From contig JAEUHX010000087.1 in NCBI GenBank assembly GCA_016792805.1, forward strand, positions 76,955 through 140,954: a stretch of DNA of 64,000 nucleotides. The letters are read 5' to 3'. A program made the translations under genes and the position numbers. A model generated the notes under the pieces. The model saw only the letters and a list, made by a program, of their open reading frames with translations. It did not search any database and was not told the DNA's origin. This stretch comes from Planctomycetota bacterium (GTDB taxonomy: Bacteria > Planctomycetota > UBA1135 > JACQFD01). Positions 19,844 to 32,586 of this stretch are shown here, piece by piece (the first letter of the stretch is position 1; the number at the start of each line of letters is the position of its first letter).

Positions 19844-20560
19844 TCAGTTCACAGTTGTCCAGACCTGGCCGTCCATCCCAAGCTTCGAGGGAAGGGTGTT
19901 CGCGGTCGGCTGGATAATTGAGTTTGTGACTCCGCCCGAAGCGAATGCGGCGGAGGGCGCAGGGGCTGCGACTCCGGTGTAGATGCCACCGACGTTAAGC
20001 ATCTGCAGAAGCTCCCCGCCCTGATTGGCAAAGAAGACTCGATTGCTCGAGTTCCCTTGGCTCACGGGCCAGGCGTAGGCGCACCAGGTTGCCTCGCATC
20101 CATCCGGGTCCGGAAGGTTCGCAGGATCGGCCCCGCCCGTGGCAGCCTCGGCAACGCCGAGACCCGCCGCATTGGGAAGCCAGATCTGGAACAAATAGCC
20201 GGAGCGCTGAACTCTCGCGCTCACGACGTTGCCGAAGGAGCTCGAAGCCACCGGCGGCTTCATCTTCTCCGTAGCGGAGACGATTTGTGTTGTTCCGTTA
20301 AATGTGCGAACAAATGCAGCGCCTGCGAGCTCCCCGAAATTGGCGAACTCACCGACTCCGTCGCCGTCCCCATCGATAATGGCGGCAGCCTTCGCCTGTG
20401 CTTGGCTCGACATCAGCTGCCGCAGGGTCGAGATCGCCGCCGACTCGTTGGCTGCCTGCCGCGCCGACAGGAGATTGGGAACGGCGAGTGCGGCGATGAT
20501 TGCAACAATCGCAATGACGATCATGAGCTCGATTAGTGTGAAGCCGCGGTTCCCTCGCAT
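19844..20560 (-). CDS. Type IV pilin / pseudopilin paralogue 2 (prepilin-type N-terminal methylation domain)
   Basis: ATG at 20560 with GAGG 9-10 nt upstream. MRGNRG|FTLIELMIVIAIVAIIAALAVPNLLSAR is a class III signal with Gly-1/Phe+1/Glu+5. About 55-60% identical by eye to 20688-21419. Confidence 0.85.
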   Translation of the reverse strand: MRGNRGFTLIELMIVIAIVAIIAALAVPNLLSARQAANESAAISTLRQLMSSQAQAKAAAIIDGDGDGVGEFANFGELAGAAFVRTFNGTTQIVSATEKMKPPVASSSFGNVVSARVQRSGYLFQIWLPNAAGLGVAEAATGGADPANLPDPDGCEATWCAYAWPVSQGNSSNRVFFANQGGELLQMLNVGGIYTGVAAPAPSAAFASGGVTNSIIQPTANTLPSKLGMDGQVWTTVN

Positions 20561-20641
20561 CGCATGATACCTCAGTTTTTCCGCCAGGCTTCTATCGGAC
20601 AGAGATGCTGCGACGCTTTCGCAGGTTCTTCCAGAAATGCA

Positions 20642-20665
20642 CAAGGGCGGGTAACCCCGCCCTTG
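20642..20665 (-). terminator. 10-bp perfect GC-rich hairpin between the two pilin genes (attenuator/partial terminator candidate)
   Basis: CAAGGGCGGG-TAAC-CCCGCCCTTG lies 23 nt downstream of the pilin-1 stop. The downstream T-tract is poor (GTGCATTTC). Confidence 0.4.
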
Positions 20666-20687
20666 CGCGAATGGAGCGAACTGTCTC

Positions 20688-21419
20688 TTACTGGACGTTC
20701 GACCAAACGTTCGTGTCCATGCCGAGCTTGGTGGTCGTGGTCACGGCCAACGGCTGATTGATCGCACCCGCGGTGCCGCCCGAAGCGAACGCAGCGTCCG
20801 CCGCCGGCGCGGTTGTGCCGTTGTACGGAGCCGCACCGTTATTGAGGCATTGCAGCACGTCACCCTGCTGATTCACGAAGAATGCACGGTTGCCGCTGTT
20901 GCCGCGGTTAATCGGCCAGGCATAGGCGCACCAGGTGGTCTCGCAGAGGTCCGGCGACAAAGTACCCACAAGCGACGTCGCACCCGCACCGCTCGCGTCT
21001 TCCTTGCTGCCGATGCCGGTCGCATTGGGCAGCCAGATCACAAAGTTGTAACCAGAACGCGACACATAACCGTTCGCGTCAACGTTGCCGAACGCTCCCG
21101 ACAGAACCGGGGGCGTCACCTTCGTCGTCGCGCTGATCACCTGTGTCGTGCCGTTGAAGGCGCGCACGAACGACCTGCCGGAGAGCTCGGCAAAGAAGCC
21201 GTACTCACCCGTGCCATCTCCATCGCCGTCGATCACGCCCGAGGCCTGCACCTGCGCTTGCGCGGAGGCGAGGTTGCGAAGCGTCGCGACGGCGGCCGTC
21301 TCGTTCGCCGAGAGGCGAGCGGACAGGAGGTTCGGAATCGCGATCGAGGCGATGATCGCAATAATCGCGACCACGATCATGAGCTCAATCAGCGTGAAAC
21401 CCTTGTTCCCCTTCTTCAT
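20688..21419 (-). CDS. Type IV pilin / pseudopilin paralogue 1
   Basis: MKKGNKG|FTLIELMIVVAIIAIIASIAIPNLLSAR. AAGGAG lies 10 nt upstream. ATGA overlap with the upstream TPR gene stop. Contains a DGDGDGTGEY loop and CETTWCAYAWP. Confidence 0.9.
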   Translation of the reverse strand: MKKGNKGFTLIELMIVVAIIAIIASIAIPNLLSARLSANETAAVATLRNLASAQAQVQASGVIDGDGDGTGEYGFFAELSGRSFVRAFNGTTQVISATTKVTPPVLSGAFGNVDANGYVSRSGYNFVIWLPNATGIGSKEDASGAGATSLVGTLSPDLCETTWCAYAWPINRGNSGNRAFFVNQQGDVLQCLNNGAAPYNGTTAPAADAAFASGGTAGAINQPLAVTTTTKLGMDTNVWSNVQ

Positions 21420-22336
21420 CGAACCGGTTCTCCTTTGCTTGCCGGCGGGATCTCGTTCCCTCCGGATTTCTTACCTTCGAGCATCGATGGCGCCCCTCCA
21501 CTGTGGAGAGTTACCACGAATTCCCTGAGGTCGTCAGGGATGACTCCCTGCGCGACCCACGCTTGCCAAACTTCCGCGTCGCTTCGCACCGCAGCAGCAA
21601 GCTGTTGCTTGAGCATCGGCCTCAGGACTCGGAGGTCTTCGAGCCCGCTATCGGCATTGCCCAGCTGTATCTTTAGCTTCGCAGCTTGGTAGCAAGCGTG
21701 GGGGTCCTCCTTTCCGAGGGCTGAAAGAATTTCCAGCGCCCCTTCCACCTGCCCCAGCTGCGCAGCGCGGAGCGCTGCAGAGATCGAGAGCTGCTTGTCC
21801 GGCCCCGCTCCGCGGCCAGCAGAAAGATATTTCTGCGCGGCCTCGTCCATTCGCCCGCATGCTTCCTCGATCTGAGCGGACACGAAGCAACATTTTTGTA
21901 CGGTCTCGGCGTTCGACGCGCTCTGCGCGAGCACGACCTGCTCGCGCGCCTGTTCGAGGTCGCCCGCCCTCAAGCGGCTCGCGGCGAGAGCCACACGGAT
22001 CTCGCCGCGTTGATCGGCGTTCGCCGCCAGCGAGAGCGCCTTTTTATAACAGTCTTCTCCAACGCTTCGATCTCCAATCTGCAATGATGCGTGCGCTTTC
22101 ACGAGCAGCGAGTTCAAGTCCCTCGGATCGCGGGCGAGCGCGCGCTCCGCGCTTTCGAGCGCCGGCGAGTAGAGTCCGAGGGAGAGCTGGAGTACGGCGA
22201 TGTCCGCCGGGGAGACCTCCTCGAGCCGCCGATCACGGGTCCGCCAGCCTCCGTAGGCAAGAAGACCCGCAATCGTGCAGCCGAACCCGTAGAGAGCAAG
22301 GCGCTTCGAGAGGGTTGGATTCGTGAACATCGACAT
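21416..22336 (-). CDS. Membrane-anchored TPR-repeat protein
   Basis: 306 aa. N-terminal hydrophobic span LALYGFGCTIAGLLAYGGW, then Ala/Leu-rich TPR-like helices. Its ATG immediately follows the pilC stop. Confidence 0.65.
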   Translation of the reverse strand: MSMFTNPTLSKRLALYGFGCTIAGLLAYGGWRTRDRRLEEVSPADIAVLQLSLGLYSPALESAERALARDPRDLNSLLVKAHASLQIGDRSVGEDCYKKALSLAANADQRGEIRVALAASRLRAGDLEQAREQVVLAQSASNAETVQKCCFVSAQIEEACGRMDEAAQKYLSAGRGAGPDKQLSISAALRAAQLGQVEGALEILSALGKEDPHACYQAAKLKIQLGNADSGLEDLRVLRPMLKQQLAAAVRSDAEVWQAWVAQGVIPDDLREFVVTLHSGGAPSMLEGKKSGGNEIPPASKGEPVR

Positions 22337-23569
22337 TTAGTGAGAGTGCGCCAGCTGCTCCTGGAGCTTGAAGATCGGCAGGAACACCGCGAGCACAATT
22401 CCGCCGACCACAAAACCCATGACTCCGATCATGATCGGCTCGATCATGGATGTGAGCCCCTTGACGGCAGCTTCGACCTGCTGGTCATAAAAGTGCGCAA
22501 TTTTCTCGAGGAGCGTGTCGAGGGCACCCGTGCGCTCACCGATCGAGATCATCTTGACCACCATGGGCGGGAAGACCTTGGACTGACCGAGCGGAGCGGA
22601 GAGCGTTTCACCTTGGCGAACGCTCTCGCGCGCCGAGAGCACGGCGGCCGAAATCACCTTGTTGCCCGCAGTCTGTGCCACGATGTCCATCGCGGCAAGA
22701 ATCGGCACACCGGACTTCACAAGCGTGGCGAACGTCCGCGAAAAGCGCGACAGTGCTACTTTTCGAAAGAGCGTACCGAAGACCGGCATCCGGAGAAGTG
22801 TGGCGTCGAAGAGGTAGGCGCCTCGCGGTGTCTTCTTCGCCACCATGATTCCGGTCGCCGCCGCAGCTCCAGCCCCGACGAGCAGGTACCAATACCCTTT
22901 ACAGAAGAATGCCGCATCCATCACGAACAGCGTGAGGCCGGGAAGCTCGATGTCGAGGCTGTCGAACACCGGCTTGAACTGCGGCACGATTCCGATCATG
23001 AGGAATGCCGCAATTCCGAGCACGAGCACGAGCGAGATGACGGGGTAGGTCATTGCGCTCTTCACCTCTCGGATCAGCTGAGCGCTCGCCTCGAGGTACT
23101 CGGCAAGGCGAACAAGAATGATATCCAGCTGACCCGATGCCTCGCCCGCGCGCACCATGTTTACATAAAGCTCAGGAAAAACCTGCGGGTACTTCTCGAG
23201 AGCCTTCGAGAGATCGACACCTCCCCGCACAGATTCGACCACGCCCGACAGCACGGCCTGGAAACCGGGCGACTCGGCTTGCTCGCGCTGAATCTCGAGC
23301 GCCTCAAGAATCGGGATACCGGCACCCACCATCGTGGCGAGCTGCCGAGTAAAAACCACCAGTTCCTCGCGCGTGACTCCCTTGCGGGAAGCCTTCGCGA
23401 AAAGCTCCTTCATGGTTTTTGTCGCATCGTCGCCCCCGCTCGAAACCTCCATTACTGTGAGGTTCTTCCGCTTCAGCTCCGACATGGCGTCCGACTTCGT
23501 CTTCGCAGAGATCGTTCCCGTGAGCGTGGCTCCTGCCTGATCGCGTGCGCGGTATCGGAAGCTCCCCAT
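22337..23569 (-). CDS. pilC: Type IV pilus / T2SS platform protein PilC/GspF
   Basis: ORF 22337..23704. ATG at 23569 (MGSFRYRARD) is preceded by AGAGGGA. Two T2SSF repeats (FTRQLATMVGAGIPILEAL... and FSRTFATLVKSGVPILAAM...). Confidence 0.9.
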   Translation of the reverse strand: MGSFRYRARDQAGATLTGTISAKTKSDAMSELKRKNLTVMEVSSGGDDATKTMKELFAKASRKGVTREELVVFTRQLATMVGAGIPILEALEIQREQAESPGFQAVLSGVVESVRGGVDLSKALEKYPQVFPELYVNMVRAGEASGQLDIILVRLAEYLEASAQLIREVKSAMTYPVISLVLVLGIAAFLMIGIVPQFKPVFDSLDIELPGLTLFVMDAAFFCKGYWYLLVGAGAAAATGIMVAKKTPRGAYLFDATLLRMPVFGTLFRKVALSRFSRTFATLVKSGVPILAAMDIVAQTAGNKVISAAVLSARESVRQGETLSAPLGQSKVFPPMVVKMISIGERTGALDTLLEKIAHFYDQQVEAAVKGLTSMIEPIMIGVMGFVVGGIVLAVFLPIFKLQEQLAHSH

Positions 23570-23712
23570 TGCATTCCCTCTTCTATTCGGCTGCGTAGTG
23601 TCTGGCGTGCGTGCGTTGCGTGACCGTTGCGGCGCGACAACCTGTCGGCGCCGGTGTGTACCTGTAGCTTGAGCGCTCCGCGCGTTGCGCGTCCCGCTCT
23701 GCACTCGGGCGC

Positions 23713-25134
23713 CTATGCCATCGGCATCGGGAGCGCCTCAACCGTAGTGCGCCCGCGTGCGAGGGCTCGGAAGGCGCTGTCGCGCATCCGAAGCCCCGGC
23801 ACGCGCTGGTCGAGTGCGCTGCCGGTGAGACCTTCCCGAATCGCGAGAGCTGCCGCCTCGGGAGGCGAGAGCACCTCGCTAATGAGAACATTCCCGAGAT
23901 ATCCGCTCGAGCATCGGTCGCATCCCGTCGCTCGATAAAAGGAGGCTGCCGCGACCTCGCTCTCCGGAAACCCGCCGAAGCTCATCGAGAGCTCGTCGGA
24001 ACCGACAGGCTCTCGGCAGCTCGGGCAAAGCGCCCGCACGAGACGCTGCCCCACGAGGACGGGCCGCGCGGCAGCGAGCTCCACGGGGTCCACGTCGAGG
24101 TGCCTCAGTGCGGAGACGGCGTCGACGGCGCCGCGCGCCGAGACCGCAAGAATCACGTGGCGGCCGTCAGCCGCGGCACGGAAGGCGCGAACCGTGCCGT
24201 GCTTATTATGAACTCTGCCGATGAGTAAGACATCGGGGTCGTGGCGCATGGCGTCGTCGACGGCGTCTTCCCGGGAACTCGGCGACTGCGAGCTGCGAAG
24301 CGAGATCCAGGACCAGTTCTCCCGCTCCGGAGCAGGTCCGATCAACGACACAATCAGCTTCCCCTGGACAGCCGCTTCCGCTCCCAGTGCGAGAAGTGTG
24401 GATCGCGCACCTTCCGCGATCGGAACGCCAAGAACGATCATTCCGCCATGCGGGCGTGACAACGCGGTCCTGAGCTCCTTTGCTACGTGCGGCTCGAGCC
24501 CCAGGGCGTCGAGGCCGTCGAAGCTCCTGCGATGGAGCACCCGCCCGACATAACGAATACCTCCGGACCAAGCGAGGATGTCGAACTCAATGTTCGACAG
24601 GCCCGTCGGCGTCTCGACTCCACAAGTGACTGCTGAGGGCATTGGCTGGTCGGGGCGGATCCCAGCGGCGCGGCGCAGCTGTGCTTCGAGCGCGCCCGCC
24701 GCAAGCTCTCCGAGAATCCGCCGCTCGCCGCCCATCCGCGCGGTAGCGACCATCCCAGAATTTGTGATATCGAAGTGGATCGTATGTGCTCCAGCTTCGA
24801 TCGCATCGGTGAGAATGTCTGCGAGTGAAGATGCTGGGGTCGCCGACGCCGGCTCCGCTGCCGCCGGCACCGGCGGCTTGGCCGAAGGCGGATCGGCCTG
24901 CAGTTCTCCCGGAGATGTCATCATTTGCTCATCGGCGAGGACTCGATCGAGTTCGTCGAGCAGCGAACTCGGTGCAGCGCTCGGCTCACTGGAACTCTGC
25001 GTCGGCGTCGGCAGGGCCGCCCCCGCTGGCTGCTGCACCAGGGGCGGCGGCGGGAGCGCCGCGGAGTCCTCCATGGTCCGAAACACTTCGCACTCGTCCA
25101 GTGCGCGCCCGATTCCCCCGCCCGGCGCGTTCAT
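23713..25134 (-). CDS. GspE/PilB-family protein with degenerate ATPase motifs (pseudo-ATPase); Zn tetracysteine retained
   Basis: 473 aa. The fold markers are collinear with GspE/PilB: AHTIHFD in place of ASDIH, DPDVLLIG, and CPSC...CDRC. Walker A is GVPIAEGARST (no GK[ST]). The Asp box is SLIGPAPE. Walker B reads DPDVLLIGRVHN, where Glu is replaced by Arg. The His box is DGRHVILAVSARG. ATGA overlap with the pilT stop. Confidence 0.8.
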   Translation of the reverse strand: MNAPGGGIGRALDECEVFRTMEDSAALPPPPLVQQPAGAALPTPTQSSSEPSAAPSSLLDELDRVLADEQMMTSPGELQADPPSAKPPVPAAAEPASATPASSLADILTDAIEAGAHTIHFDITNSGMVATARMGGERRILGELAAGALEAQLRRAAGIRPDQPMPSAVTCGVETPTGLSNIEFDILAWSGGIRYVGRVLHRRSFDGLDALGLEPHVAKELRTALSRPHGGMIVLGVPIAEGARSTLLALGAEAAVQGKLIVSLIGPAPERENWSWISLRSSQSPSSREDAVDDAMRHDPDVLLIGRVHNKHGTVRAFRAAADGRHVILAVSARGAVDAVSALRHLDVDPVELAAARPVLVGQRLVRALCPSCREPVGSDELSMSFGGFPESEVAAASFYRATGCDRCSSGYLGNVLISEVLSPPEAAALAIREGLTGSALDQRVPGLRMRDSAFRALARGRTTVEALPMPMA

Positions 25135-26204
25135 CGCACAGACTCCTTTCGGAGAAGATTATTGAGCTCCGTCTGGTCGGGTGTTGCCGAAAGAGCCTCG
25201 TCGTAGGAGATGAGGTTCTGGCGATACAAATCCGCCAGGGATTGGTTCATGGTCCGCATCCCAAGGCGCCCGCCGGTCTGTATGAGCGAGTAGATCTGGT
25301 GAGCCTTGTTCTCGCGAATGAGCGCTCGAATGGCGGGGTTCACCACCATGATCTCCGCCGCCAGAACTCGTCCTCGGCCGTTCGTGCGCGCAAGGAGCTG
25401 CTGACAGAACACAGCCTGAAGCGAGAAGGCGAGCTGAGTTCGAATTTGTTGCTGCCGATCGGCGGGGAACACGTCCACGATACGGTTGATCGTCTGGACG
25501 CAATCCGATGTATGGAGAGTCGCAAAAGTAAGATGTCCGGTCTCCGCGAGCGTCAAGGCGGCCTCGATCGTCTCGGGATCGCGCATTTCGCCGATGAGCA
25601 CGACGTCGGGGTCCTCGCGGAGCACGGCGCGAAGCGCCTGGTTGAATCCGTGGGTGTCGGTGCCTACTTCGCGCTGATTCACGAGGCAGCCCTTGTTCCG
25701 ATGGAGGAACTCGATCGGATCCTCGACTGTAATAATGTGCTCCTGCCGCTGCGCATTAATGTGATCGACGAGCGAAGCGAGCGTCGTGCTCTTGCCCGAT
25801 CCAGTGGCGCCAGTGACGAGGACGAGCCCCTTCGGCAGCGAGCAGATTTCTTCACAAATGCGCCTCGGCAGACCAAGCTTTTCGAACTCATGGATCTCGT
25901 AGGGAATCACGCGCAGTACGGCTGCGATGGAGCCCCGCTGCATGAAGACGTTCGTTCGAAAACGGCCGAATCCGGAGAACCCGAATGAGCAGTCGAGTTC
26001 GAGGTTCTTCTCGAAGCGTGCGATCTGGTCCGGCGTGAGGATCGAGTAGATCAGCTTCCGAGCGATCTCCGGAGTGAGCGGATCGAACTCGGTCAGAATG
26101 AGCTTGCCGTCGACACGGATTCGCGGAGGCGAGCCAACGGCCAAATGAAGATCCGAACCACCACGCTGCACGAGCAGCGTGAGCAACTCCTCCATCGAGA
26201 TCAT
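25131..26204 (-). CDS. pilT: Type IV pilus retraction-type ATPase PilT
   Basis: ORF 25131..26360, start MISMEELL at 26204. Intact GATGSGKST, DPDVVLIGEMRD, TGHLTFATLHTS and the PilT signature AIRALIRENK. Confidence 0.9.
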   Translation of the reverse strand: MISMEELLTLLVQRGGSDLHLAVGSPPRIRVDGKLILTEFDPLTPEIARKLIYSILTPDQIARFEKNLELDCSFGFSGFGRFRTNVFMQRGSIAAVLRVIPYEIHEFEKLGLPRRICEEICSLPKGLVLVTGATGSGKSTTLASLVDHINAQRQEHIITVEDPIEFLHRNKGCLVNQREVGTDTHGFNQALRAVLREDPDVVLIGEMRDPETIEAALTLAETGHLTFATLHTSDCVQTINRIVDVFPADRQQQIRTQLAFSLQAVFCQQLLARTNGRGRVLAAEIMVVNPAIRALIRENKAHQIYSLIQTGGRLGMRTMNQSLADLYRQNLISYDEALSATPDQTELNNLLRKESVR

Positions 26205-26246
26205 ATTTCCCCACCCCGGGTGCCGAGGAGCCTCCTCGCAGACCCG

Positions 26247-26300
26247 CAAAAGCATCGGACGCTGCGGCGGGCGCTCTTGAGCGCCCCGACGCAGCGTCCG
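26247..26300 (-). terminator. Long GC hairpin plus T4 tract downstream of the EF-G-like gene
   Basis: Minus strand: CGGACGCTGCG-tcg-GGGCGCT-CAAG-AGCGCCC-gc-CGCAGCGTCCG, followed by ATGCTTTTGC. That is 11 bp plus 7 bp with a small internal loop. It ends only about 42 nt before the pilT ATG. Confidence 0.6.
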
Positions 26301-26323
26301 CTCGGCACCCGGCGGCCAGAAAA

Positions 26324-28390
26324 TTATTCTTCGGCTTTGTGCCCGTGGGCTGCGGCCCACTCGGAAACGATCTGCTCCTGGAGCGTCGAGGGGACCTGGT
26401 CGTAGTGTGAGAACTCAAGGGTGAAGGACCCCTCCCCCGCCGTCACGGAGCGCAGCTGCGTTGTGTATTGCTGCAACTCCTTGAGCGGCACCTGGGCCTT
26501 CACGATCGCTTGGTCGCCCACGGAATCCATACCCATGATGCGGCCGCGCCGGGTATTGAGGTCTCCGATCACGGCGCCCATCAGCGCTTGCGGAATCACA
26601 ATAGTTACATCCATGATCGGCTCGAGGAGGATCGGCTTCGCCTTGATGAATGCGTCCTTAAATGCGTTGCGCCCGGCAATCTCGAATGAAATGCCGTCGG
26701 AGTCGACCTCGTGATACTTGCCGTCGTAGACCGAGACGCTCACGTCAATCACTTCGCAGCCCGCGATGATTCCCTTCTCGAGAACGCTGCGCATCCCCTT
26801 CTCGACAGCGGGAAGGAACTGCCTCGGGACGGATCCGCCCACGACATCATCCACAAATTCGAACCCGGCGCCGCGTTCGCGCGGCTCGACGCGGCAATAG
26901 ATCTCCCCGAACTGTCCGCGTCCGCCCGATTGTTTCTTATGTCGATAGTGCCCCTCTGCCTTGCCTCGGATTGCCTCCTTGTATGCAATCTTGGGCAGAT
27001 GGGTCGACACCTCGACTCCGTACATCCGGTGGAGACGGTGCAGCTGGGTGTTGATCTGCAGATCGCTCAGACCCTCAATAATCAGCTCATGGGTCGTCGC
27101 GTCGCGGCGCAGGTGGAGTGAGGGGTCCTCGGCGACGATCTTGCGCAAGGTCTCAGCAATCTTGCCTTCGTCCTCGCGGCGCTTCGGTTCGATCGCCCAA
27201 GAGACCGTGGGCTTCGGAAGCTCCGGCTTCTTGAAATGAAACACGACGCCGCGATCTTTGCCTTCAAGGGCTGGCAGGAGCGTGTCGCCGAAGTGCAGCG
27301 GAGCCTGCATCTTTGATATCGCAATGAGCTGGCCGCTCACGCAATGATCCGTCGGCTTCCGATCCTTTCCGAAAAGTGTAAGAATCCCGCCGATCTTTAG
27401 CGGCTTTCCCGAATGGGGATCGGCGATGGGAAGGTCGTGGTCGAGCGTCCCGCGGGTCACGCGCACGTAGTGGATCTCGCCGATCGCCTTATCGGTAACT
27501 GTCTTGAAGACGAATCCGGCAAAGGGCTCAGTCGTGCTCGGCGAAACCTGCACTTCCTTGCCATCGGGCCCGACTCCAACGTGCGCGCCGAAATCAACCG
27601 CGCGCGGAAAGTACAATTCCACAAATCGAGCGAGCTCGGGGATGCCAAGCCCAGTCGCTGAGTTCACAAAAAACACCGGTACGACGGTCTTGGCGACCAT
27701 GGCCCGGGCAATGGCCTTCTCGAGAACCTCGGGGGCAACCGAGCCCGATTCCAAGTAGCTCTCCATGAGCTTCTCGTCTGCTTCGACGACGCGCTCCACG
27801 AAGGTGGCGTAGAACCCGGCTGCCCGATCCCTCAGCCCCGCGTCGGCATCGGCCGCCGGCCGGAGGACATCGACGACCTGCTTGGCGTTCGGACCGAGCG
27901 CGTTGGGAAGCGTGACCGGAACACATCGGTCGCCGAACTGCGACTGAATCGCCTCGAGCACAGTGTCGAGTTCGACGTTCGGATGGTCCATTTTGGTGAC
28001 CACGATGGCGCGCGCGACGCCGGCCGCCTCGGCGCGTCCCCACATCGTCCTTGCGTGGAACGGGATCGTTCCAACGGCAGGGATACAGATCGCCGCGGTC
28101 TCCACCACAGAGAGTCCCGCGATCGCGTCCGCGATGAACTCGGGATACCCCGGGGTATCAATCATCTCCACGATGCCGTTCTTCCGCGGCAGGTGCAGCA
28201 CCGCGAGCTGGAACGAGTGCTTCTTTTCTTTCTCTTCCGGCTCGTAATCCGCGACTGTCGTGCCGTCGGCTACGGAGCCTTTCCGAGTGATGGCGCCGTA
28301 CGCGTGGGCCAGGGATTCCGCAAGCGTTGTCTTTCCCGAGTCGGCGGGGCCGACGAGGGCAAAAGTACGAACATCGATGACCTGAGCCAT
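26324..28390 (-). CDS. Elongation factor G paralogue with non-canonical GTPase motifs
   Basis: 688 aa and collinear with EF-G through domains I-V (YHEVDSD, LEPIMDV, DLNTRRGRI). G1 is GPADSGKTT. G2 reads KKHSF in place of RGITI. G3 is DTPGYPEF, with Tyr where the catalytic His sits. G4 is TKMD. AAGGAG lies 9 nt upstream of the ATG. Confidence 0.9.
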   Translation of the reverse strand: MAQVIDVRTFALVGPADSGKTTLAESLAHAYGAITRKGSVADGTTVADYEPEEKEKKHSFQLAVLHLPRKNGIVEMIDTPGYPEFIADAIAGLSVVETAAICIPAVGTIPFHARTMWGRAEAAGVARAIVVTKMDHPNVELDTVLEAIQSQFGDRCVPVTLPNALGPNAKQVVDVLRPAADADAGLRDRAAGFYATFVERVVEADEKLMESYLESGSVAPEVLEKAIARAMVAKTVVPVFFVNSATGLGIPELARFVELYFPRAVDFGAHVGVGPDGKEVQVSPSTTEPFAGFVFKTVTDKAIGEIHYVRVTRGTLDHDLPIADPHSGKPLKIGGILTLFGKDRKPTDHCVSGQLIAISKMQAPLHFGDTLLPALEGKDRGVVFHFKKPELPKPTVSWAIEPKRREDEGKIAETLRKIVAEDPSLHLRRDATTHELIIEGLSDLQINTQLHRLHRMYGVEVSTHLPKIAYKEAIRGKAEGHYRHKKQSGGRGQFGEIYCRVEPRERGAGFEFVDDVVGGSVPRQFLPAVEKGMRSVLEKGIIAGCEVIDVSVSVYDGKYHEVDSDGISFEIAGRNAFKDAFIKAKPILLEPIMDVTIVIPQALMGAVIGDLNTRRGRIMGMDSVGDQAIVKAQVPLKELQQYTTQLRSVTAGEGSFTLEFSHYDQVPSTLQEQIVSEWAAAHGHKAEE

Positions 28391-28460
28391 CCGAGCGAGC
28401 TCCTTTACGAGCCGTCCGACGGTGCAGCCTCAACAGCACGCATCGCCGAGCTGACCGCTA

Positions 28461-28500
28461 GAGAAAAAAGAAGGGTCCAGACTCTACCGAGTCCGAACCC
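28461..28500 (-). terminator. Rho-independent terminator after the OmpA-domain lipoprotein gene
   Basis: Minus strand: GGGTTCGGACTC-GGTA-GAGTCTGGACCC-TTCTTTTTTCTC. This is a 12-bp stem whose two non-Watson-Crick positions are G.U on the minus-strand RNA but C.A on the plus strand. Confidence 0.65.
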
Positions 28501-28596
28501 TCTTTGGGCACTGGGTCGAAGGCTGCTGTCAGAGCCTCCGTCAAGGCGCCTACCGCGGGAGCAGGGATTGAATCTCTGGCTGCGTTCAGGACGGGA

Positions 28597-29343
28597 TCAG
28601 TCGATCCAGATTTCGACGCGGCGGTTCTTCGACTTCTCTTGCTTGCCGGAGCCAGCGGCGACGGGCGCGTACTCGCCGAACGCAGCGGGAACCATGCGCT
28701 TCTGAGAAATCCCCACGGCAGAGAGCTCCGCCACAACAGCCACGGCGCGCTCGAAAGAAAGGTGGCGATTGTCCTTGAACTTGTCGCGCGACTTCTTGGG
28801 CGGATCCGCGTCGGTGTGCCCCGCAACCCAAAGACGCGCGTCGGCGGGAAGGCTCTTCGCGAGCGCAGCTCCGACGTCGCGAACGGCCTTCTTGCCCTGT
28901 GCCGTCAGCTCAGCGCTGCCGGGGTTGAACGCGTCTCCGAGCGCGAGAGTGACGCAGACCTTGCCGTCGCGCACTTCAACGTTGCCCTTCGAATTGCCCA
29001 TCGACGTGGAGAGCTTCTTCGCGAGGGCGGCAACCTCCGCGCTCCCGCGGCCGGCGACCGCGTCCGTCGGTTGGCCGATTGTGCCCGCAGCGGCGACCGG
29101 TCGAGCGGCGGACTGCTCGCGAGCAACGCGCGCGGCCTCCTCGGCCGCGCTCGCCTTCTGCTGAAGCGTCGTCTCGCGGGCTCGCGCTTCGTCGCGCTCC
29201 GCCTTCACCTGGTCGAGTTCATTCTCGAGCTGGTGATTGGAATTCGCGAGGTCGTCGTTGCGCCGCTTCAGATCGGAGTAGCACGACGGCATCAGAGGCA
29301 CGGCGAGAAATAAAGCCACAGAGAGAACTTGTGTGAATCGCAT
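28597..29343 (-). CDS. Lipoprotein with coiled coil and C-terminal OmpA/MotB-like peptidoglycan-binding domain
   Basis: ORF 28597..29532, start MRFTQVLSVALFLAVPLMPSC at 29343. Coiled-coil segment (NHQLENELDQVKAERDEARARE). The OmpA_C-like tail reads AGHTDADP...NRHLSFERAVAVVAEL...NRRVEIWI. Confidence 0.8.
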   Translation of the reverse strand: MRFTQVLSVALFLAVPLMPSCYSDLKRRNDDLANSNHQLENELDQVKAERDEARARETTLQQKASAAEEAARVAREQSAARPVAAAGTIGQPTDAVAGRGSAEVAALAKKLSTSMGNSKGNVEVRDGKVCVTLALGDAFNPGSAELTAQGKKAVRDVGAALAKSLPADARLWVAGHTDADPPKKSRDKFKDNRHLSFERAVAVVAELSAVGISQKRMVPAAFGEYAPVAAGSGKQEKSKNRRVEIWID

Positions 29344-29353
29344 CGGGTTACTC

Positions 29354-29399
29354 CGGATCCTGCAACGGATCCAAAGATGAGTGGCAAACGAGCGGATCC
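29354..29399. promoter_or_regulatory. Cluster of three CGGATCC palindromes directly upstream of the OmpA-domain lipoprotein start
   Basis: CGGATCC at 29354-29360, 29366-29372 and 29393-29399, with a fourth at 29543-29549. The first two can pair with each other and abut the GGAG Shine-Dalgarno-like sequence. Confidence 0.35.
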
Positions 29400-29553
29400 G
29401 CCGGAGCAGCGTGCGCGCCGATTCGGAGCCTGTGGGCTCGTGCGCCATGGAGAAACGTGAATGGGTTCGTATTGAGGAGATGATCTGAGAAATTACAAAA
29501 ATCGCCCGGGGACCATGGAGTTCGGAGTTCACAGCGGCCGCTCGGATCCTCCA

Positions 29554-30714
29554 TTATCCGTGGAGGCCGGAGAACGCCGCAAATACGCTCAGAACTTCGC
29601 GCCGATTCAAAAGCACAATTGCAGCCCCCGCCGCGAGGAAGGGCCCGAAAGGAATCAGCCGCCCCGCCGCATTCGCGACGGACCAGGCGGTCGGCCTCCG
29701 TTCGATGCGGTGGCTCCGCGGCCGTTGACGAGCCCGTCGACGCTGCACCAGAAAAACGTAGAGGCGCGCGATATTGGCAATCCCGAGGAGCGCTCCAAGC
29801 ACCGAGGCCACCGCAAATGCCAAGAGGGACCCCTCGGGTCCTACGCAACCGCCGATTGCTCCCTGCAGCTTCACATCTCCAAATCCCATCGCTTCGCGCT
29901 CATTTCGGATGCGGAGTTCACCGCCGGGCTCAATTGGCTGGGCTGTATCGCGAACCAGCACGGGATTTGTGGCGGTCGGCGCCTTCCACAGAATCTGCTG
30001 GTCCTCGACGAGCCGCTGGACCTCGGCCGAAGAGCGCTTCATACCGGCCGATGCCAAGTAAGTGTCCAGGCGACGGGGCCTTGCGTCGGCCGGAACCTGG
30101 AGAATCTCAACGCTCGAGTAGGCCCATGTGCCTGCTGCACGGATAAGTGCCACACTGGCTGCACCCGTTCCGACGCCGAGCACGCTCACCACCAGCGCGC
30201 GCAGCCGCTCATGCTCAATCCAGGGTGCGAGCTGGCGTGCGCCCCAAGTGTCGGCCAAGAGATGTGGAGCGATGAGCGCCAGCAACGGCCCGAAGAGGAG
30301 TCCCGGAATGGTGATCTCGTCAGGGAGGATCGTGAGTTCGAGATCGATCAGAGAGAGCGCGAGCAGCGCCGCGAGTGCAATCCAGATAAAGATCAGTGCC
30401 GGCGAATAGCCTGGGCCGGGTTGCATCCACCAAGCCCACAAGAAGAGCAAACTGCAGGAAAGCTCCACGACGGGATAGCGCGCCGAAATCGGAGTTCTGC
30501 AGCGCCGGCATCGGGCACCCAGCAGCACCCAGGCGACCACCGGAAGATTGTCATACCAAGCGATGTCCGCGCTGCAGCGAGGACAGCGGGAGCGACCGAG
30601 TAGCGATCGCCAGCCGCCCTCCGGCAAGCGATGGACGACAACGTTGACGAACGAGCCTACAGCCAATCCAAAGAGGGCCGCGAATATGCCGAATACAAGA
30701 GTGACGCCGTCCAC
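29554..30714 (-). CDS. pilD: Prepilin peptidase / N-methyltransferase (A24 family) with large cytoplasmic insertion
   Basis: 386 aa with a GTG start. CPRC...CRRC zinc motif. First catalytic Asp in LSLIDLE (D124), second in GFGDVKL (D280), and a C-terminal IPFGPFL motif. Confidence 0.85.
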   Translation of the reverse strand: MDGVTLVFGIFAALFGLAVGSFVNVVVHRLPEGGWRSLLGRSRCPRCSADIAWYDNLPVVAWVLLGARCRRCRTPISARYPVVELSCSLLFLWAWWMQPGPGYSPALIFIWIALAALLALSLIDLELTILPDEITIPGLLFGPLLALIAPHLLADTWGARQLAPWIEHERLRALVVSVLGVGTGAASVALIRAAGTWAYSSVEILQVPADARPRRLDTYLASAGMKRSSAEVQRLVEDQQILWKAPTATNPVLVRDTAQPIEPGGELRIRNEREAMGFGDVKLQGAIGGCVGPEGSLLAFAVASVLGALLGIANIARLYVFLVQRRRARQRPRSHRIERRPTAWSVANAAGRLIPFGPFLAAGAAIVLLNRREVLSVFAAFSGLHG

Positions 30715-30783
30715 CGGTCGTCTGCGATTGTGACTTCTTCGGAGAGCGGGTTCAAAACCTAGGAATCGATGCTGCCGCGGAAA

Positions 30784-32586
30784 TCACCTGGTCGAGATTT
30801 CGAAGACGGCTCGGTCGACAACCGGAGCCACGAGTTCGGGGCCACTGCCGGCGCGCAGGAGTGAGATCTCGATTTGAAACTGCATCCACTGTCCGGGTGG
30901 GAGTCTCTCGGCCGGATCGGCCCATGGGGTTGCCGACCGGGGATCCATTGCGGCGGTCTCCGGATTCGGGGCCGGAAGGGAGCGTGCCGTGCGCACGCGG
31001 AGCGCCACGTCGCCGCTTCCCATGGCCGATTCGGCTCTTGCACCAACGATTGTGACAAGGCGGCCACCCATGCGGATCCACTTGGATGTGCTCACATAGC
31101 GAAGATTTGGCCGGGAGCGGAAGCTGGTGGCGTCGAGGAGCGGTGTGCGCTGGAACTCGCGCTCTTTCACTCCGCTCAGATCACCTGCAAGCCCCATCCC
31201 CGCAGGTGCAATGATCCGAAGCTTCGTGCATTCGATGCGGGCGCTGGCGGCGACCCTCACCGCGCCCCCTGCCACGAGGAGCAAGGTCCCAGGAGTTGTG
31301 ATCCTTCCCGATATGTGGAGATCTCCTCCTGCGACAAGGGCGAGATCCCACGGCCCCATGAGACCATCGACTCGCTCCCAAGCGGGCTCGTGGGTTCCCT
31401 CTCGTCTCGCGGAGAGCACACCGCGCAGGTCGAGACTGCCGGCGCATCCAATGCAGGACGGCAGCACAAGCCTCCCTTCGTCCGTTGGAAGGGAATCAAT
31501 CGAAGAGGCTTGGAGCAACCTCGTTCCGAGCTCGCCGCGCAACGCGATGTGGCCATCGCGACCGTCGCCGGCGGCCTTCGGGAAATGCGCGCGCAGCGCG
31601 CCGTCTCCTGCCCATGTGGCCGTTGCCGTCTGCGGGTCGAATGTCTCCGGCGTCGACCGGTCATGAACATAGAGAAATTCTTCAATAATTGAACTCGGCT
31701 CATAGCTCGGCGCCGGGATGATTTCGAATCGCGGCTGTCGGCCGTCCAGAAGGCGGCACGGATTGCCGCCGAAGTCGGTGACCCGATCGGACACTTCAAG
31801 CGAAACCGCCGAGTACCCGTCCAGCGGCGCCACCGTTCGGAGCTCGATGCGCGCAGAGGAAGTGTCGTTGCGGAGCACCGGATCCAACAAGGCAATGGGC
31901 CGACGACTGCCGCGGTCGTCGATCCCGATGAGCTGAAAATTGTCTGCGGTCACTCGATGGGGCGCCAACGGCTCATCTGTGGCAAGCTCAAGCGCTGCGC
32001 CGCGATGCCATAGGACACTTGCGATCTCGCCTCCGCCCGCAGCCGGATCGCTGGCACCATAGACCGTGAGCACGGGCCCTTTCCACGGAGAATGGTCCAC
32101 GAGAAGGGCGAGCGTGGAGTCCTGGCGCAGCGGAGCTGTGGTGAACTCGAACCGATGGGATTTCGAGAGCACCTGCCCGCGTGAGGACCGAACTCCCGAC
32201 GCCCTCGGAAAGCCCATGATCTCAACGGTATAGGTTCGCCCCGGCTGAAGTCCTCCATCGGCGTAGTCGACCCGGGAAGGGAGCGCGGGCAAGAACCTTA
32301 CTCTTCCGTTGGGAAGCACGTCGAGCTTCCCAGCAGTGACCCGCTCTCCGGGCGCGGAATCGGCGAGAGCGATTCGAATGCCGCCGCCATGGACGCTTCC
32401 GGGATCGACCGGCTGATTGAAGACCCAGGTCAGCTCGCCATTGACGGGGTGCCCCGTGGCACCGCCCTGGAGGAAATTGGTGAGGTCGAAAGGAGCCTCA
32501 GCGGGCGGCTGGCAAGCAGTGAGCGGACAGGCGACCAATGCCAGCGCGCAGAGCAGAATCCTGAAATGAGAGCGGTCCACGGACAC
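30784..32586 (-). CDS. Lipoprotein D: SbsA-Ig-like domains plus beta-helix-like region; short paralogue of the giant lipoproteins
   Basis: 600 aa with a GTG start. Signal ILLCALALVACPLTAC. Ig-like segment LTWVFNQPVDPGSV...GRTYTVEI. C-terminal QWMQFQIEISLL...PVVDRAVFEI resembles the tails of lipoproteins A, B and C. Confidence 0.75.
   Translation of the reverse strand: MSVDRSHFRILLCALALVACPLTACQPPAEAPFDLTNFLQGGATGHPVNGELTWVFNQPVDPGSVHGGGIRIALADSAPGERVTAGKLDVLPNGRVRFLPALPSRVDYADGGLQPGRTYTVEIMGFPRASGVRSSRGQVLSKSHRFEFTTAPLRQDSTLALLVDHSPWKGPVLTVYGASDPAAGGGEIASVLWHRGAALELATDEPLAPHRVTADNFQLIGIDDRGSRRPIALLDPVLRNDTSSARIELRTVAPLDGYSAVSLEVSDRVTDFGGNPCRLLDGRQPRFEIIPAPSYEPSSIIEEFLYVHDRSTPETFDPQTATATWAGDGALRAHFPKAAGDGRDGHIALRGELGTRLLQASSIDSLPTDEGRLVLPSCIGCAGSLDLRGVLSARREGTHEPAWERVDGLMGPWDLALVAGGDLHISGRITTPGTLLLVAGGAVRVAASARIECTKLRIIAPAGMGLAGDLSGVKEREFQRTPLLDATSFRSRPNLRYVSTSKWIRMGGRLVTIVGARAESAMGSGDVALRVRTARSLPAPNPETAAMDPRSATPWADPAERLPPGQWMQFQIEISLLRAGSGPELVAPVVDRAVFEISTR

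Follow-up and report, generated by a model that had tools for sequence, protein, structure and literature searches.

An S4 domain inserted ahead of the catalytic GxGD motif of PilD in one family of Planctomycetota

Introduction

Type IV prepilins are matured by PilD-type prepilin peptidases (MEROPS A24A), of which PilD/XcpA of Pseudomonas aeruginosa and TcpJ of Vibrio cholerae are the textbook examples. These enzymes combine the Pfam domains PF06750 and PF01478 on an eight-transmembrane-helix (TM) plan, with two catalytic aspartates, the second within a GxGD motif, and a zinc-binding CxxC...CxxC methylase loop, and are encoded with a pilus cluster whose pilins carry G↓FTLIEL cleavage sites. 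The topology of A24A enzymes (PMC10191384, PMC3584216) and the four-Cys zinc motif (PMC3584216) have been described, and the textbook members have one large cytoplasmic portion, their other cytoplasmic loops being small (PMC10191384). The two aspartates of PilD and TcpJ stand about 64 residues apart.

The S4 domain is known from a different setting. Ribosomal protein uS4, Hsp15/RqcP, YlmH, TlyA and TyrRS, in which it is C-terminal, are soluble proteins with rRNA or tRNA as their ligand. To our knowledge, characterised S4 domains are almost always RNA binders, and we know of no ribosome-binding S4 protein that forms part of an integral membrane enzyme. Here we describe a Planctomycetota PilD that carries an S4 domain in the cytoplasmic loop leading to its GxGD motif.

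Results

Identification of the prepilin peptidase and its pilus cluster

The DNA analysed (the window) is a stretch of 64,000 nucleotides from an uncultured Planctomycetota bacterium, in which pilD lies within a co-directional type IV pilus cluster (Table 1). Profile searches of the protein gave 99.8 bits for PF06750 (cutoff 23) and 41.1 bits for PF01478 (cutoff 26.5), the latter match being broken into two stretches by an insert. In PilD alignments of 23 and 78 sequences, both catalytic aspartates are invariant or nearly so, and C44, C47, C69 and C72 of the methylase loop are at least 90% conserved. M276, G277, G279, D280, K282, P355 and P358 are invariant across the 78 sequences, with F356 and G357 nearly invariant. 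No other A24 peptidase was detected in the host genome, which is 91% complete. Judged by sequence, the protein is a PilD-type A24A enzyme with both aspartates, the GxGD motif and the four-Cys motif intact, and the conserved residues, together with its being the sole copy, suggest that it is an active peptidase.

The host genome encodes at least 20 prepilin-type proteins (20 N_methyl matches) and about 10 T2SSE ATPases. The two pilins of the cluster have cleavage sites of the MKKGNK↓GFTLIEL type, and the leaders are canonical and of the same type in genomes with and without the insert; an unusual pilin leader was rejected on these grounds as the reason for the insert. The PilB-like protein of the cluster lacks the Walker A motif in the family of the window, and the EF-G paralog also occurs in relatives whose PilD has no S4 insert. 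The pilD gene is present in seven bioreactor or metagenome runs from two studies, which may be its source; no RNA run is among the sequencing runs listed with the gene.

Table 1. Coordinates of pilD, its domains and motifs, and the surrounding cluster in the window.
Feature	Position	Strand	Basis
pilD, PilD-type (A24A) prepilin peptidase/N-methyltransferase with inserted S4 domain	29554..30714	(-)	ORF, GTG start, 386 aa; PF06750 + PF01478
A24_N_bact methylase domain, residues 14-97, including C44, C47, C69, C72	30424..30675	(-)	PF06750 E=9e-29; Cys columns at least 90% conserved
First catalytic Asp codon, D124 (LSLIDLE)	30343..30345	(-)	(nearly) invariant alignment column
Inserted S4 domain, residues 199-273	29896..30120	(-)	alignment, profile and structure matches
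GFGD motif, residues 277-280, second catalytic Asp D280	29875..29886	(-)	alignment conservation
Arg-rich cytoplasmic loop 4, residues 324-340, QRRRARQRPRSHRIERR, ahead of IPFGPFL	29695..29745	(-)	also in insert-free PilDs
PFGP motif, residues 355-358, start of last TM helix	29641..29652	(-)	alignment conservation
Co-directional conserved type IV pilus cluster around pilD	19844..32586	(-)	Pfam; synteny in 3 family genomes + 3 of other families of the order
Pilin	19844-20644	(-)	Pfam
Pilin	20688-21419	(-)	Pfam
TPR protein	21416-22336	(-)	Pfam
PilC/T2SSF platform	22337-23704	(-)	Pfam
PilB-like protein without Walker A	23713-25134	(-)	Pfam
PilT-like ATPase	25131-26360	(-)	Pfam
EF-G paralog	26324-28390	(-)	Pfam
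OmpA-family protein	28597-29532	(-)	Pfam
Big_5 lipoprotein	30784-32586	(-)	Pfam

Position of the insert and the Arg-rich loop

The insert lies in cytoplasmic loop 3, between TM5 and TM6, six residues upstream of the GxGD motif. Between the landmark residues 196 and 274, the alignment counts 78 residues in this PilD and six in ordinary insert-free relatives. A preliminary description of the window, made from the letters alone, had placed an extra cytoplasmic segment at nt 29890-30117; this is confirmed as residues 200-275, and the stretch quoted there, PRRLDTYLAS...GGELRI, is residues 213-269. Its reading frame and its spacing of 156 residues between D124 (LSLIDLE) and D280 (GFGDVKL) also stand, against about 64 in the textbook enzymes. 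The excess is not all due to the S4 insert, since insert-free Planctomycetota relatives have spacings of ~82-84; the insert explains ~72 of the extra residues, the remainder being typical of the lineage.

The loop ahead of the last TM helix departs from the textbook enzymes as well, being about 28 residues longer and Arg-rich. The basic stretch before IPFGPFL is present as described, but it is no companion of the S4 insert: a loop 4 segment of 28-29 residues is also found in the insert-free PilDs P0017, P0020, P0027 and P0123, compared with six residues in most others. The loop is therefore independent of the S4 insert, and its co-acquisition with the S4 domain was rejected. It would be an older positive-inside feature of the lineage.

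Homology of the insert to synthase-type S4 domains

A PF01479 search, proposed at the outset as a check on the S4 assignment, was borderline: the match covers only profile positions 1-28 and scores 19.2 bits in the whole protein, 22.1 bits in the insert alone and 23.2 bits in a six-frame scan, around a cutoff of 22.8. PF01479 is found at E<1 in seven of the 13 clade members. The bona fide S4 domain of a synthase from the same genome scores only 17.3 bits, with the same partial pattern; because PF01479 under-detects such domains, the Pfam annotations precomputed for the search matches do not show the architecture.

A hidden Markov model of the insert was built from 13 relatives and run against 55,823 ORFs of the host genome. 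It matched the N-terminal S4 domain of an RluD-type pseudouridine synthase (L101:1408-2484) over 65 of 75 positions, with E=7e-9. In six other genomes of the phylum, the insert profile matched frames of pseudouridine-synthase size (five with HRLD) and no PilD. RluD was the top PDB sequence match of the insert; a whole-clade profile against PDB sequences gave weak S4 matches (uS4 E=0.26, RluD E about 2). The insert and the RluD-type S4 domain have in common a strand-RLDxFLA-helix-(S)R/K-helix-sheet layout over 65-79 residues. The synthase catalytic domain PF00849 (PseudoU_synth_2, HRLD motif) has no match in PilD, which has only the S4 module in common with RluA/RluD synthases; unlike in those soluble RNA-modifying enzymes, where it is N-terminal, the module is internal to a membrane protease here.

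Predicted structure of the insert

The AlphaFold model of the whole protein has a pLDDT of 94.6 and zero residues below 50, with the membrane core above 90. The loop is therein confidently folded and not disordered, the alternative that the preliminary description had kept in view. Within the whole protein, the insert reaches a pLDDT of 95-98, compared with 84 when predicted alone, which suggests that it packs against the enzyme. The predicted fold is a strand followed by two helices (216-222, 229-237) and then a beta-sheet.

Searches with the predicted models point to the same fold. VIA aligned 79 of 81 residues with an S4 domain at a Z of 8.9 and an rmsd of 3.4, and the top 10 of 48,161 chains were all S4 domains. 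Foldseek matched RluD with TMq 0.67-0.68 and a probability of 1.00. ESM Atlas, from an independent ESM model, gave TM 0.79 to synthase clusters bearing PF01479; a feature search of ESM Atlas returned no usable match. The best Foldseek E was 2.9e-3 and 0.001 was never reached, so weight was put on the consistency of the matches, the VIA Z-scores and the sequence profiles. RluD/RluA synthases (E. coli RluD, PDB 2ist, 7bl5; the synthase of the host genome) are the best matches by both sequence and structure, and uS4, Hsp15/RqcP, YlmH, TlyA and the C-terminal domain of TyrRS share the fold more weakly (Z 4.2-5.4).

The initial proposal of a prepilin peptidase with an S4-fold insertion is borne out by the reciprocal profile match and the three structure searches. 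The insert is a genuine S4 homologue, closest to the S4 domain at the N-terminus of RluD/RluA-family pseudouridine synthases, and is predicted to fold compactly as such. Its predicted place is on the cytoplasmic side, next to both the active site of the protease and the zinc methylase domain.

Distribution and evolution of the insert

The S4-insert PilD occurs in all four genomes of the GTDB family of the window. Searches detected it neither in 37 other genomes of the order, despite a syntenic pilus cluster there, nor in about 400 genomes of the phylum. A search of 5.8 billion clusters yielded a clade of 13 proteins, plus one later match. With a profile of the insert only, a metagenome scan returned zero relatives, and a search of longer proteins returned six clade PilDs (one new) and no other architecture, by a method that needs shared words and is weak. 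The literature searched holds no paper joining a prepilin peptidase with an S4 domain, and queries on an RNA-binding domain or a Planctomycetes insertion returned only irrelevant papers. The insertion is rare, confined to one GTDB family, and without earlier description in that literature, which agrees with its apparent novelty when first noticed. The S4-PilD combination is real, and gives a known enzyme a new domain architecture.

In a tree of S4 domains the inserts form one clade (support 98/99) and group weakly with one synthase group (79/89), which does not establish the donor gene. Synteny of the locus holds whether or not the insert is present, in three genomes of the family and three of other families of the order. 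A domain of ~75 residues would have been inserted in frame into the orthologous pilD in an ancestor of this one family. Since then the insert has evolved faster than the enzyme, with pairwise identities of 35-39% compared with 60% for the core. At least three genera and 13 protein clusters, with overall identities as low as ~46%, have kept it in frame, similar in length and with its S4 hallmark residues. Most clade members retain many basic residues at the S4 hallmark positions (R215, R226, R227, K/R229, R268, R270). A long branch leads to the genus of the window, where neither the canonical basic residue after S228 nor the R-x-G turn has been kept; the net charge of its insert, +1, is the joint lowest of eight S4 domains compared in the host genome.

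The loop before GxGD and loop 4 take many unrelated insertions, some of low complexity, and loop 3 hosts at least four other unrelated insert families in other lineages, two of them domain-like. A beta-rich family from Verrucomicrobiota, seen among the matches listed in a contig scan with the clade alignment, and the inserts of P0079/P0140-type PilDs sit at the same point, immediately ahead of (R/K)EAMGxGD, and are of similar size (90-120 residues). In sequence they bear no relation to the S4 insert, and none was matched by the insert model; for these PilDs no Pfam family is reported besides the two peptidase domains and zinc-ribbon-type matches. On this sequence comparison, they look like independent acquisitions.

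Discussion

We favour, at a probability of about 0.5, the reading that a single intact PilD underwent one ancestral S4 insertion and that the S4 domain serves as an accessory module for docking or gating and does not tether ribosomes. The enzyme would still cleave and methylate ordinary prepilins with canonical leaders. The S4 module would be a non-catalytic element for docking or gating, placed where the active site opens to the cytoplasm, and would serve a putative partner in a remodelled pilus machine. This is preferred to an RNA role because unrelated inserts occupy the same loop elsewhere, the insert evolves faster than the core, basic positions are lost in the genus of the window, the net charge is low, pilin leaders are of one type whether or not the insert is present, and the model confidence of the insert is higher in the whole protein. 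The faster evolution and the unrelated inserts are indirect arguments. Against an accessory role, characterised S4 domains, as far as we know, almost always bind RNA, and most clade members have many basic residues at the hallmark positions.

The same basic positions, in a true RluD-type homologue that faces the cytoplasm and adjoins a strongly basic loop, are what one would expect if the S4 domain and the Arg-rich loop 4 held PilD to the rRNA of translating, membrane-docked ribosomes, or to a different structured RNA such as tRNA or SRP RNA, with prepilins cleaved and methylated during their insertion. Type IV prepilins use the SRP/Sec route for insertion, and an EF-G paralog is encoded in the same conserved cluster. 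But neither the Arg-rich loop nor the EF-G paralog forms a unit with the insert, since relatives that lack it have both; the genus of the window lacks some of the canonical basic positions and is left with the low net charge; and other lineages carry inserts without S4 similarity at the same site. We consider such a tether possible but unlikely. It is also rather doubtful that the S4 module works as an RNA-binding domain coupling PilD to ribosomes or to a specific structured RNA, making pilin maturation co-translational or RNA-regulated; an RNA-binding module of this kind might work together with two other products of the cluster, the PilB-like protein that lacks Walker A and the EF-G paralog.

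The permissiveness of loops 3 and 4, even to low-complexity sequence, together with the faster divergence of the insert, would also fit a segment caught by chance that folds independently and is harmless and functionless. A functionless domain of 75 residues is expected to decay or vanish in some lineages, so its retention across genera with length and hallmarks preserved counts against this reading, as does its confidently predicted fold, and we hold it to be improbable. That the insertion broke the active site, leaving a pseudo-enzyme, could be read from the split peptidase domain and from the loss of Walker A in the neighbouring PilB-like protein; we regard this as very improbable, given that the aspartates, GxGD, PFGP and the four cysteines are intact, that the membrane core is modelled with high confidence, and that the genome retains its prepilin-type genes with canonical cleavage sites and only this A24 peptidase to serve them. 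Least credible is a chance resemblance to the S4 motif in a disordered or novel-fold segment. The whole-protein PF01479 score below the gathering cutoff, its restriction to 28 profile positions and the Foldseek E-values would allow it, yet the bona fide synthase domain scores lower still, no residue of the whole-protein model has a very low pLDDT, and the reciprocal profile match, the VIA ranking and the ESM Atlas result refute it.

The site of the insert has a topological equivalent in distant relatives. Presenilin and signal peptide peptidase have a large cytosolic loop between the TM helix of the first aspartate and the GxGD helix; in presenilin it is largely unstructured, is the site of endoproteolysis and is not an S4 domain. 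By this analogy, the loop between the two aspartate helices appears to be a permissive or regulatory site across the superfamily.

A whole family of Planctomycetota has built an RNA-binding-type fold into the loop leading to the catalytic GxGD of its only prepilin peptidase, and loops 3 and 4 of PilD are hot spots of unrelated, unannotated domain insertions in many lineages of the PVC group. Should the S4 domain have kept its binding to RNA or ribosomes, it would, as far as we know, tie pilin maturation physically to translation for the first time, and the pilus machine would be coupled to the machinery of translation. Re-use for protein docking or gating would instead make it one of the rare S4 folds that have turned from RNA to another task, and would offer a handle on how substrate access is controlled in GxGD proteases.

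Identity and topology of the window's prepilin peptidase

The product of pilD is an A24A prepilin peptidase by every feature checked, and is not a pseudouridine synthase. Pfam analysis placed the bacterial A24 N-terminal domain (PF06750) at residues 14-97 with 99.8 bits, and matched the A24 peptidase domain (PF01478, 41.1 bits) in two stretches. The catalytic residues D124 (LSLIDLE) and D280 (GFGDVKL) are separated by 156 residues; this spacing, the ORF limits, the S4-like peptide (residues 213-269) and a basic run (324-340) had all been located correctly in a preliminary description made from the sequence alone. Two alignments, of 23 and 78 PilD homologues, show little or no variation at D124, D280, the four cysteines (C44, C47, C69 and C72) and the PFGP motif. 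PF01478 and PF06750 each have one match in the genome (91% complete), in both cases pilD, while the prepilin N-methylation motif has 20 matches and T2SSE-type ATPases number about ten. The two pilins downstream of pilD carry canonical cleavage sites (MRGNR/GFTLIEL and MKKGNK/GFTLIEL), of the same kind as that in a sister family lacking the PilD insert (MRRDQ/GFTLIEL). With all catalytic residues intact and no second copy detected, pilD probably encodes the housekeeping prepilin peptidase of the genome.

Features of the pilD cluster and related loci
Feature	Position	Strand	Remarks
pilD ORF	29554-30714	minus	386 codons, GTG start, intact reading frame
PilB-like ATPase of the pilD cluster	23713-25134	minus	no Walker A motif
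EF-G paralog	26324-28390	minus	full-length, all five EF-G domains (Pfam)
C8 pseudouridine synthase (own genome)	L101:1408-2484 = G000:C8:7964-9040	plus	closest S4 relative of the PilD insert
Arg-rich basic run QRRRARQRPRSHRIERR	residues 324-340		PilD cytoplasmic loop 4

Alignment with ordinary PilDs (about 290-310 aa) showed that landmarks 196 and 274 are 78 residues apart in the window's PilD versus 6 in the others, placing the insertion at about 199-273, with its end six residues before GFGD. Segment 316-350 holds 34 residues, versus 6 in most PilDs. The Arg-rich loop there had been described as a second insertion, but in the insert-free homologues P0017 and P0123 the same segment has 28-29 residues, and an Arg-rich loop is visible in the alignment of the insert-free P0020 and P0027 too. 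Co-acquisition was thus rejected, and the loop is an older feature of the lineage. The published topology of PilD has eight transmembrane (TM) helices, with the methylase loop and both aspartates cytoplasmic (PMC10191384, PMC3584216), and the predicted helices of the window's PilD agree with it. On that basis, the insert is predicted to occupy cytoplasmic loop 3 (TM5-TM6) and the Arg-rich stretch cytoplasmic loop 4. A review assigns prepilin peptidases only one large cytoplasmic portion (PMC10191384), a textbook layout from which a folded loop-3 domain deviates.

The insert is an RluD-type S4 domain

The AlphaFold2 model of PilD (78-sequence alignment) has a mean pLDDT of 94.6 and a pTM of 0.89, with no residue below 50, and the loop is predicted to be folded rather than disordered. 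The insert comprises a strand (201-206), two helices (216-222 and 229-237) and two further strands (241-244 and 266-271); modelled alone from 14 sequences, it reaches a pLDDT of 84. With either model, the top Foldseek matches were RluD (2ist, 7bl5) and chains of a trypanosome mitoribosomal assembly intermediate (7aoi_XP, 6yxx_EC), followed by uS4 and TyrRS; the top matches had TMq values of 0.67-0.68 over 70-77 columns and a probability of 1.00, with a best E-value of only 3e-3. VIA-align, a method independent of Foldseek, compared 48,161 chains and ranked 6yxx_EC best (Z 8.9, 79/81 residues), then RsuA, RluF, IMP3, uS4, RqcP and TlyA; all ten best matches were S4 domains. The ESM Atlas's own model of PilD matched PF01479-bearing pseudouridine-synthase clusters over residues 199-273 with a TM of 0.79.

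The S4 profile PF01479 gave a borderline result: against a cutoff of 22.8 bits, PilD scored 19.2 as a whole protein, 22.1 as the insert alone and 23.2 in a six-frame genome scan. The match covers profile positions 1-28 only, and 7 of 13 members of the clade, the PilD proteins sharing the insert, matched at E<1. From the 13 clade proteins an HMM of the insert was built and run against every six-frame ORF of the genome that contains the window (55,823 ORFs). The HMM recovered PilD at 5e-25, followed by a 358-aa ORF on contig C8 (E=7e-9, 65/75 positions aligned), a RluA/RluD-family pseudouridine synthase (PF00849, 114 bits; HRLDRETSG motif) whose N-terminal S4 domain contains the match. With PF01479 this undisputed S4 domain reaches only 17.3 bits, in the same partial pattern; the sub-threshold score of PilD therefore reflects the profile and not the insert, and RluD-type S4 domains are under-annotated in this lineage. 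The best PDB sequence match of an insert-only profile was RluD (E about 0.05), and the phylum yielded weaker matches in 14 further genomes. The six inspected are all in frames as long as a pseudouridine synthase; five have HRLD and none has a GxGD motif. We conclude from reciprocal sequence similarity and predicted fold that the insert is a genuine member of the S4 superfamily, as had been proposed, and that it is of the RluD type.

About 650 nt from the C8 synthase gene, the opposite strand carries a gene for a full-length T2SSE (PilB/GspE-like) ATPase. With about ten such ATPases in the genome, this may be coincidence.

Distribution and origin of the insert

Among 5.8 billion protein clusters, 13 (P0002-P0014, with P0002 the window's own protein) matched over the whole query, at 46-100% identity; their named members are from Planctomycetota MAGs. 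The insert-only profile search of proteins added one clade PilD (P0268) and no architecture other than PilD. A search of 1.84 billion representatives (50% identity) gave matches across the insert for P0012, P0014 and one fragment only. In whole genomes, the contiguous form occurred in the window's GTDB family (4/4 genomes, 3 genera); it was not found in 37 other genomes of the order, where similarity, if present, breaks into residues 1-200 and 272-378. Of 401 genomes sampled throughout the phylum, only the four family genomes had strong matches to the insert (E<1e-30).

The pilD cluster (pilin, pilin, TPR protein, PilC, PilB-like, PilT-like, EF-G paralog, OmpA-family, PilD, Big_5 lipoproteins) shows synteny with the other three genomes of the family, and also with three from other families that have an insert-free PilD; the S4 module therefore entered an orthologous pilD in place. 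A tree of S4 domains unites the PilD inserts in a single clade (support 98/99), which supports a single origin; the window's genus is on a long branch. The inserts group weakly (79/89) with planctomycete synthase S4 domains including the C8 protein, which as donor group is only suggested.

The Walker A motif is absent from the cluster's PilB-like protein in all four S4-PilD genomes (the window's own, L103, L104 and L105), whereas GPTGSGKS is present in all three insert-free sister-family genomes (L106, L107 and L108). The loss and the insertion fall on the same branch, that of the family, and one lineage counts as one event. This comparison does show that the family's pilus machine was remodelled on the branch of the insertion.

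The EF-G paralog lies between the PilT-like gene and ompA-pilD, overlapping the PilT-like ORF by 37 nt. It is found at this position both in the family and in three further families of the order, and is therefore older than the S4 insertion.

Other insertions in PilD

In other lineages, loop 3 is host to at least four further, unrelated insert families and loop 4 to about a dozen more, none of them S4-like; the loop-3 position seems to favour an added cytoplasmic segment irrespective of fold. A beta-rich insert of 90-190 residues, directly before (P)REAMGxGD in loop 3, is widespread in Verrucomicrobiota (P0088, P0145, P0149, P0163 and 14 more representatives; among the matches listed, loci L014-L032 from Chthoniobacterales, Prosthecobacter and other Verrucomicrobiota). 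This insert shares no similarity with the S4 module and has no reported Pfam family; it looks like an undescribed PilD accessory domain. At the same site, the 373-aa PilDs P0079 and P0140 carry a third, unrelated insert of about 90 residues, which on visual inspection recalls a small beta-barrel. Loop 4 insertions of 70-260 residues occur in about 20 representative PilD clusters (including P0125, P0130, P0147, P0204, P0253 and P0256), represent at least 12 unrelated families and have no reported Pfam family. Six long PilDs (P0090, P0141, P0159, P0160, P0203 and P0216) have 60-110 extra residues between TM4 and TM5, which in P0090 look hydrophobic, like additional TM segments.

Possible roles of the S4 module

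We favour, with a probability of about 0.5, a reading in which the S4 insert would serve for docking or gating, with no catalytic role, where the PilD active site opens to the cytoplasm. It is favoured because unrelated inserts occupy the same loop, because the insert evolves faster than the core (mean pairwise identity 35-39% versus 60%) and in the window's genus has lost a canonical basic residue, because the Arg-rich loop and the EF-G paralog are older, and because the insert is modelled with higher confidence inside the whole protein than alone, which suggests packing against the enzyme.

The module could instead still bind RNA and tether PilD to RNA or ribosomes. To our knowledge, almost all S4 domains characterised so far are RNA binders; most clade members keep the basic hallmarks R215 (of RLD), R226, R227, K/R229, R268 and R270, and the module faces the cytoplasm and adjoins the Arg-rich loop. 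However, the window's genus lacks the basic residue after S228 and the R-x-G turn, and its insert has a net charge of +1, tying for the lowest of eight S4 domains compared in its genome. The Arg-rich loop and EF-G paralog both predate the insert, and a loop that often accepts foreign domains weakens a specific RNA reading, leaving a tether rather unlikely. That the module is simply a tolerated passenger appears more doubtful still.

For every clade member, the precomputed Pfam annotations give PF01478 and PF06750 and nothing else, and a full-text literature search found no paper that brings together a prepilin peptidase and an S4 or RNA-binding domain in this way. The window's PilD thus represents a new domain architecture for a well-known enzyme. 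This architecture occurs in a single uncultured family, seen in metagenomes from bioreactors: a surprising combination of prepilin peptidase and S4 domain in a narrow taxon.
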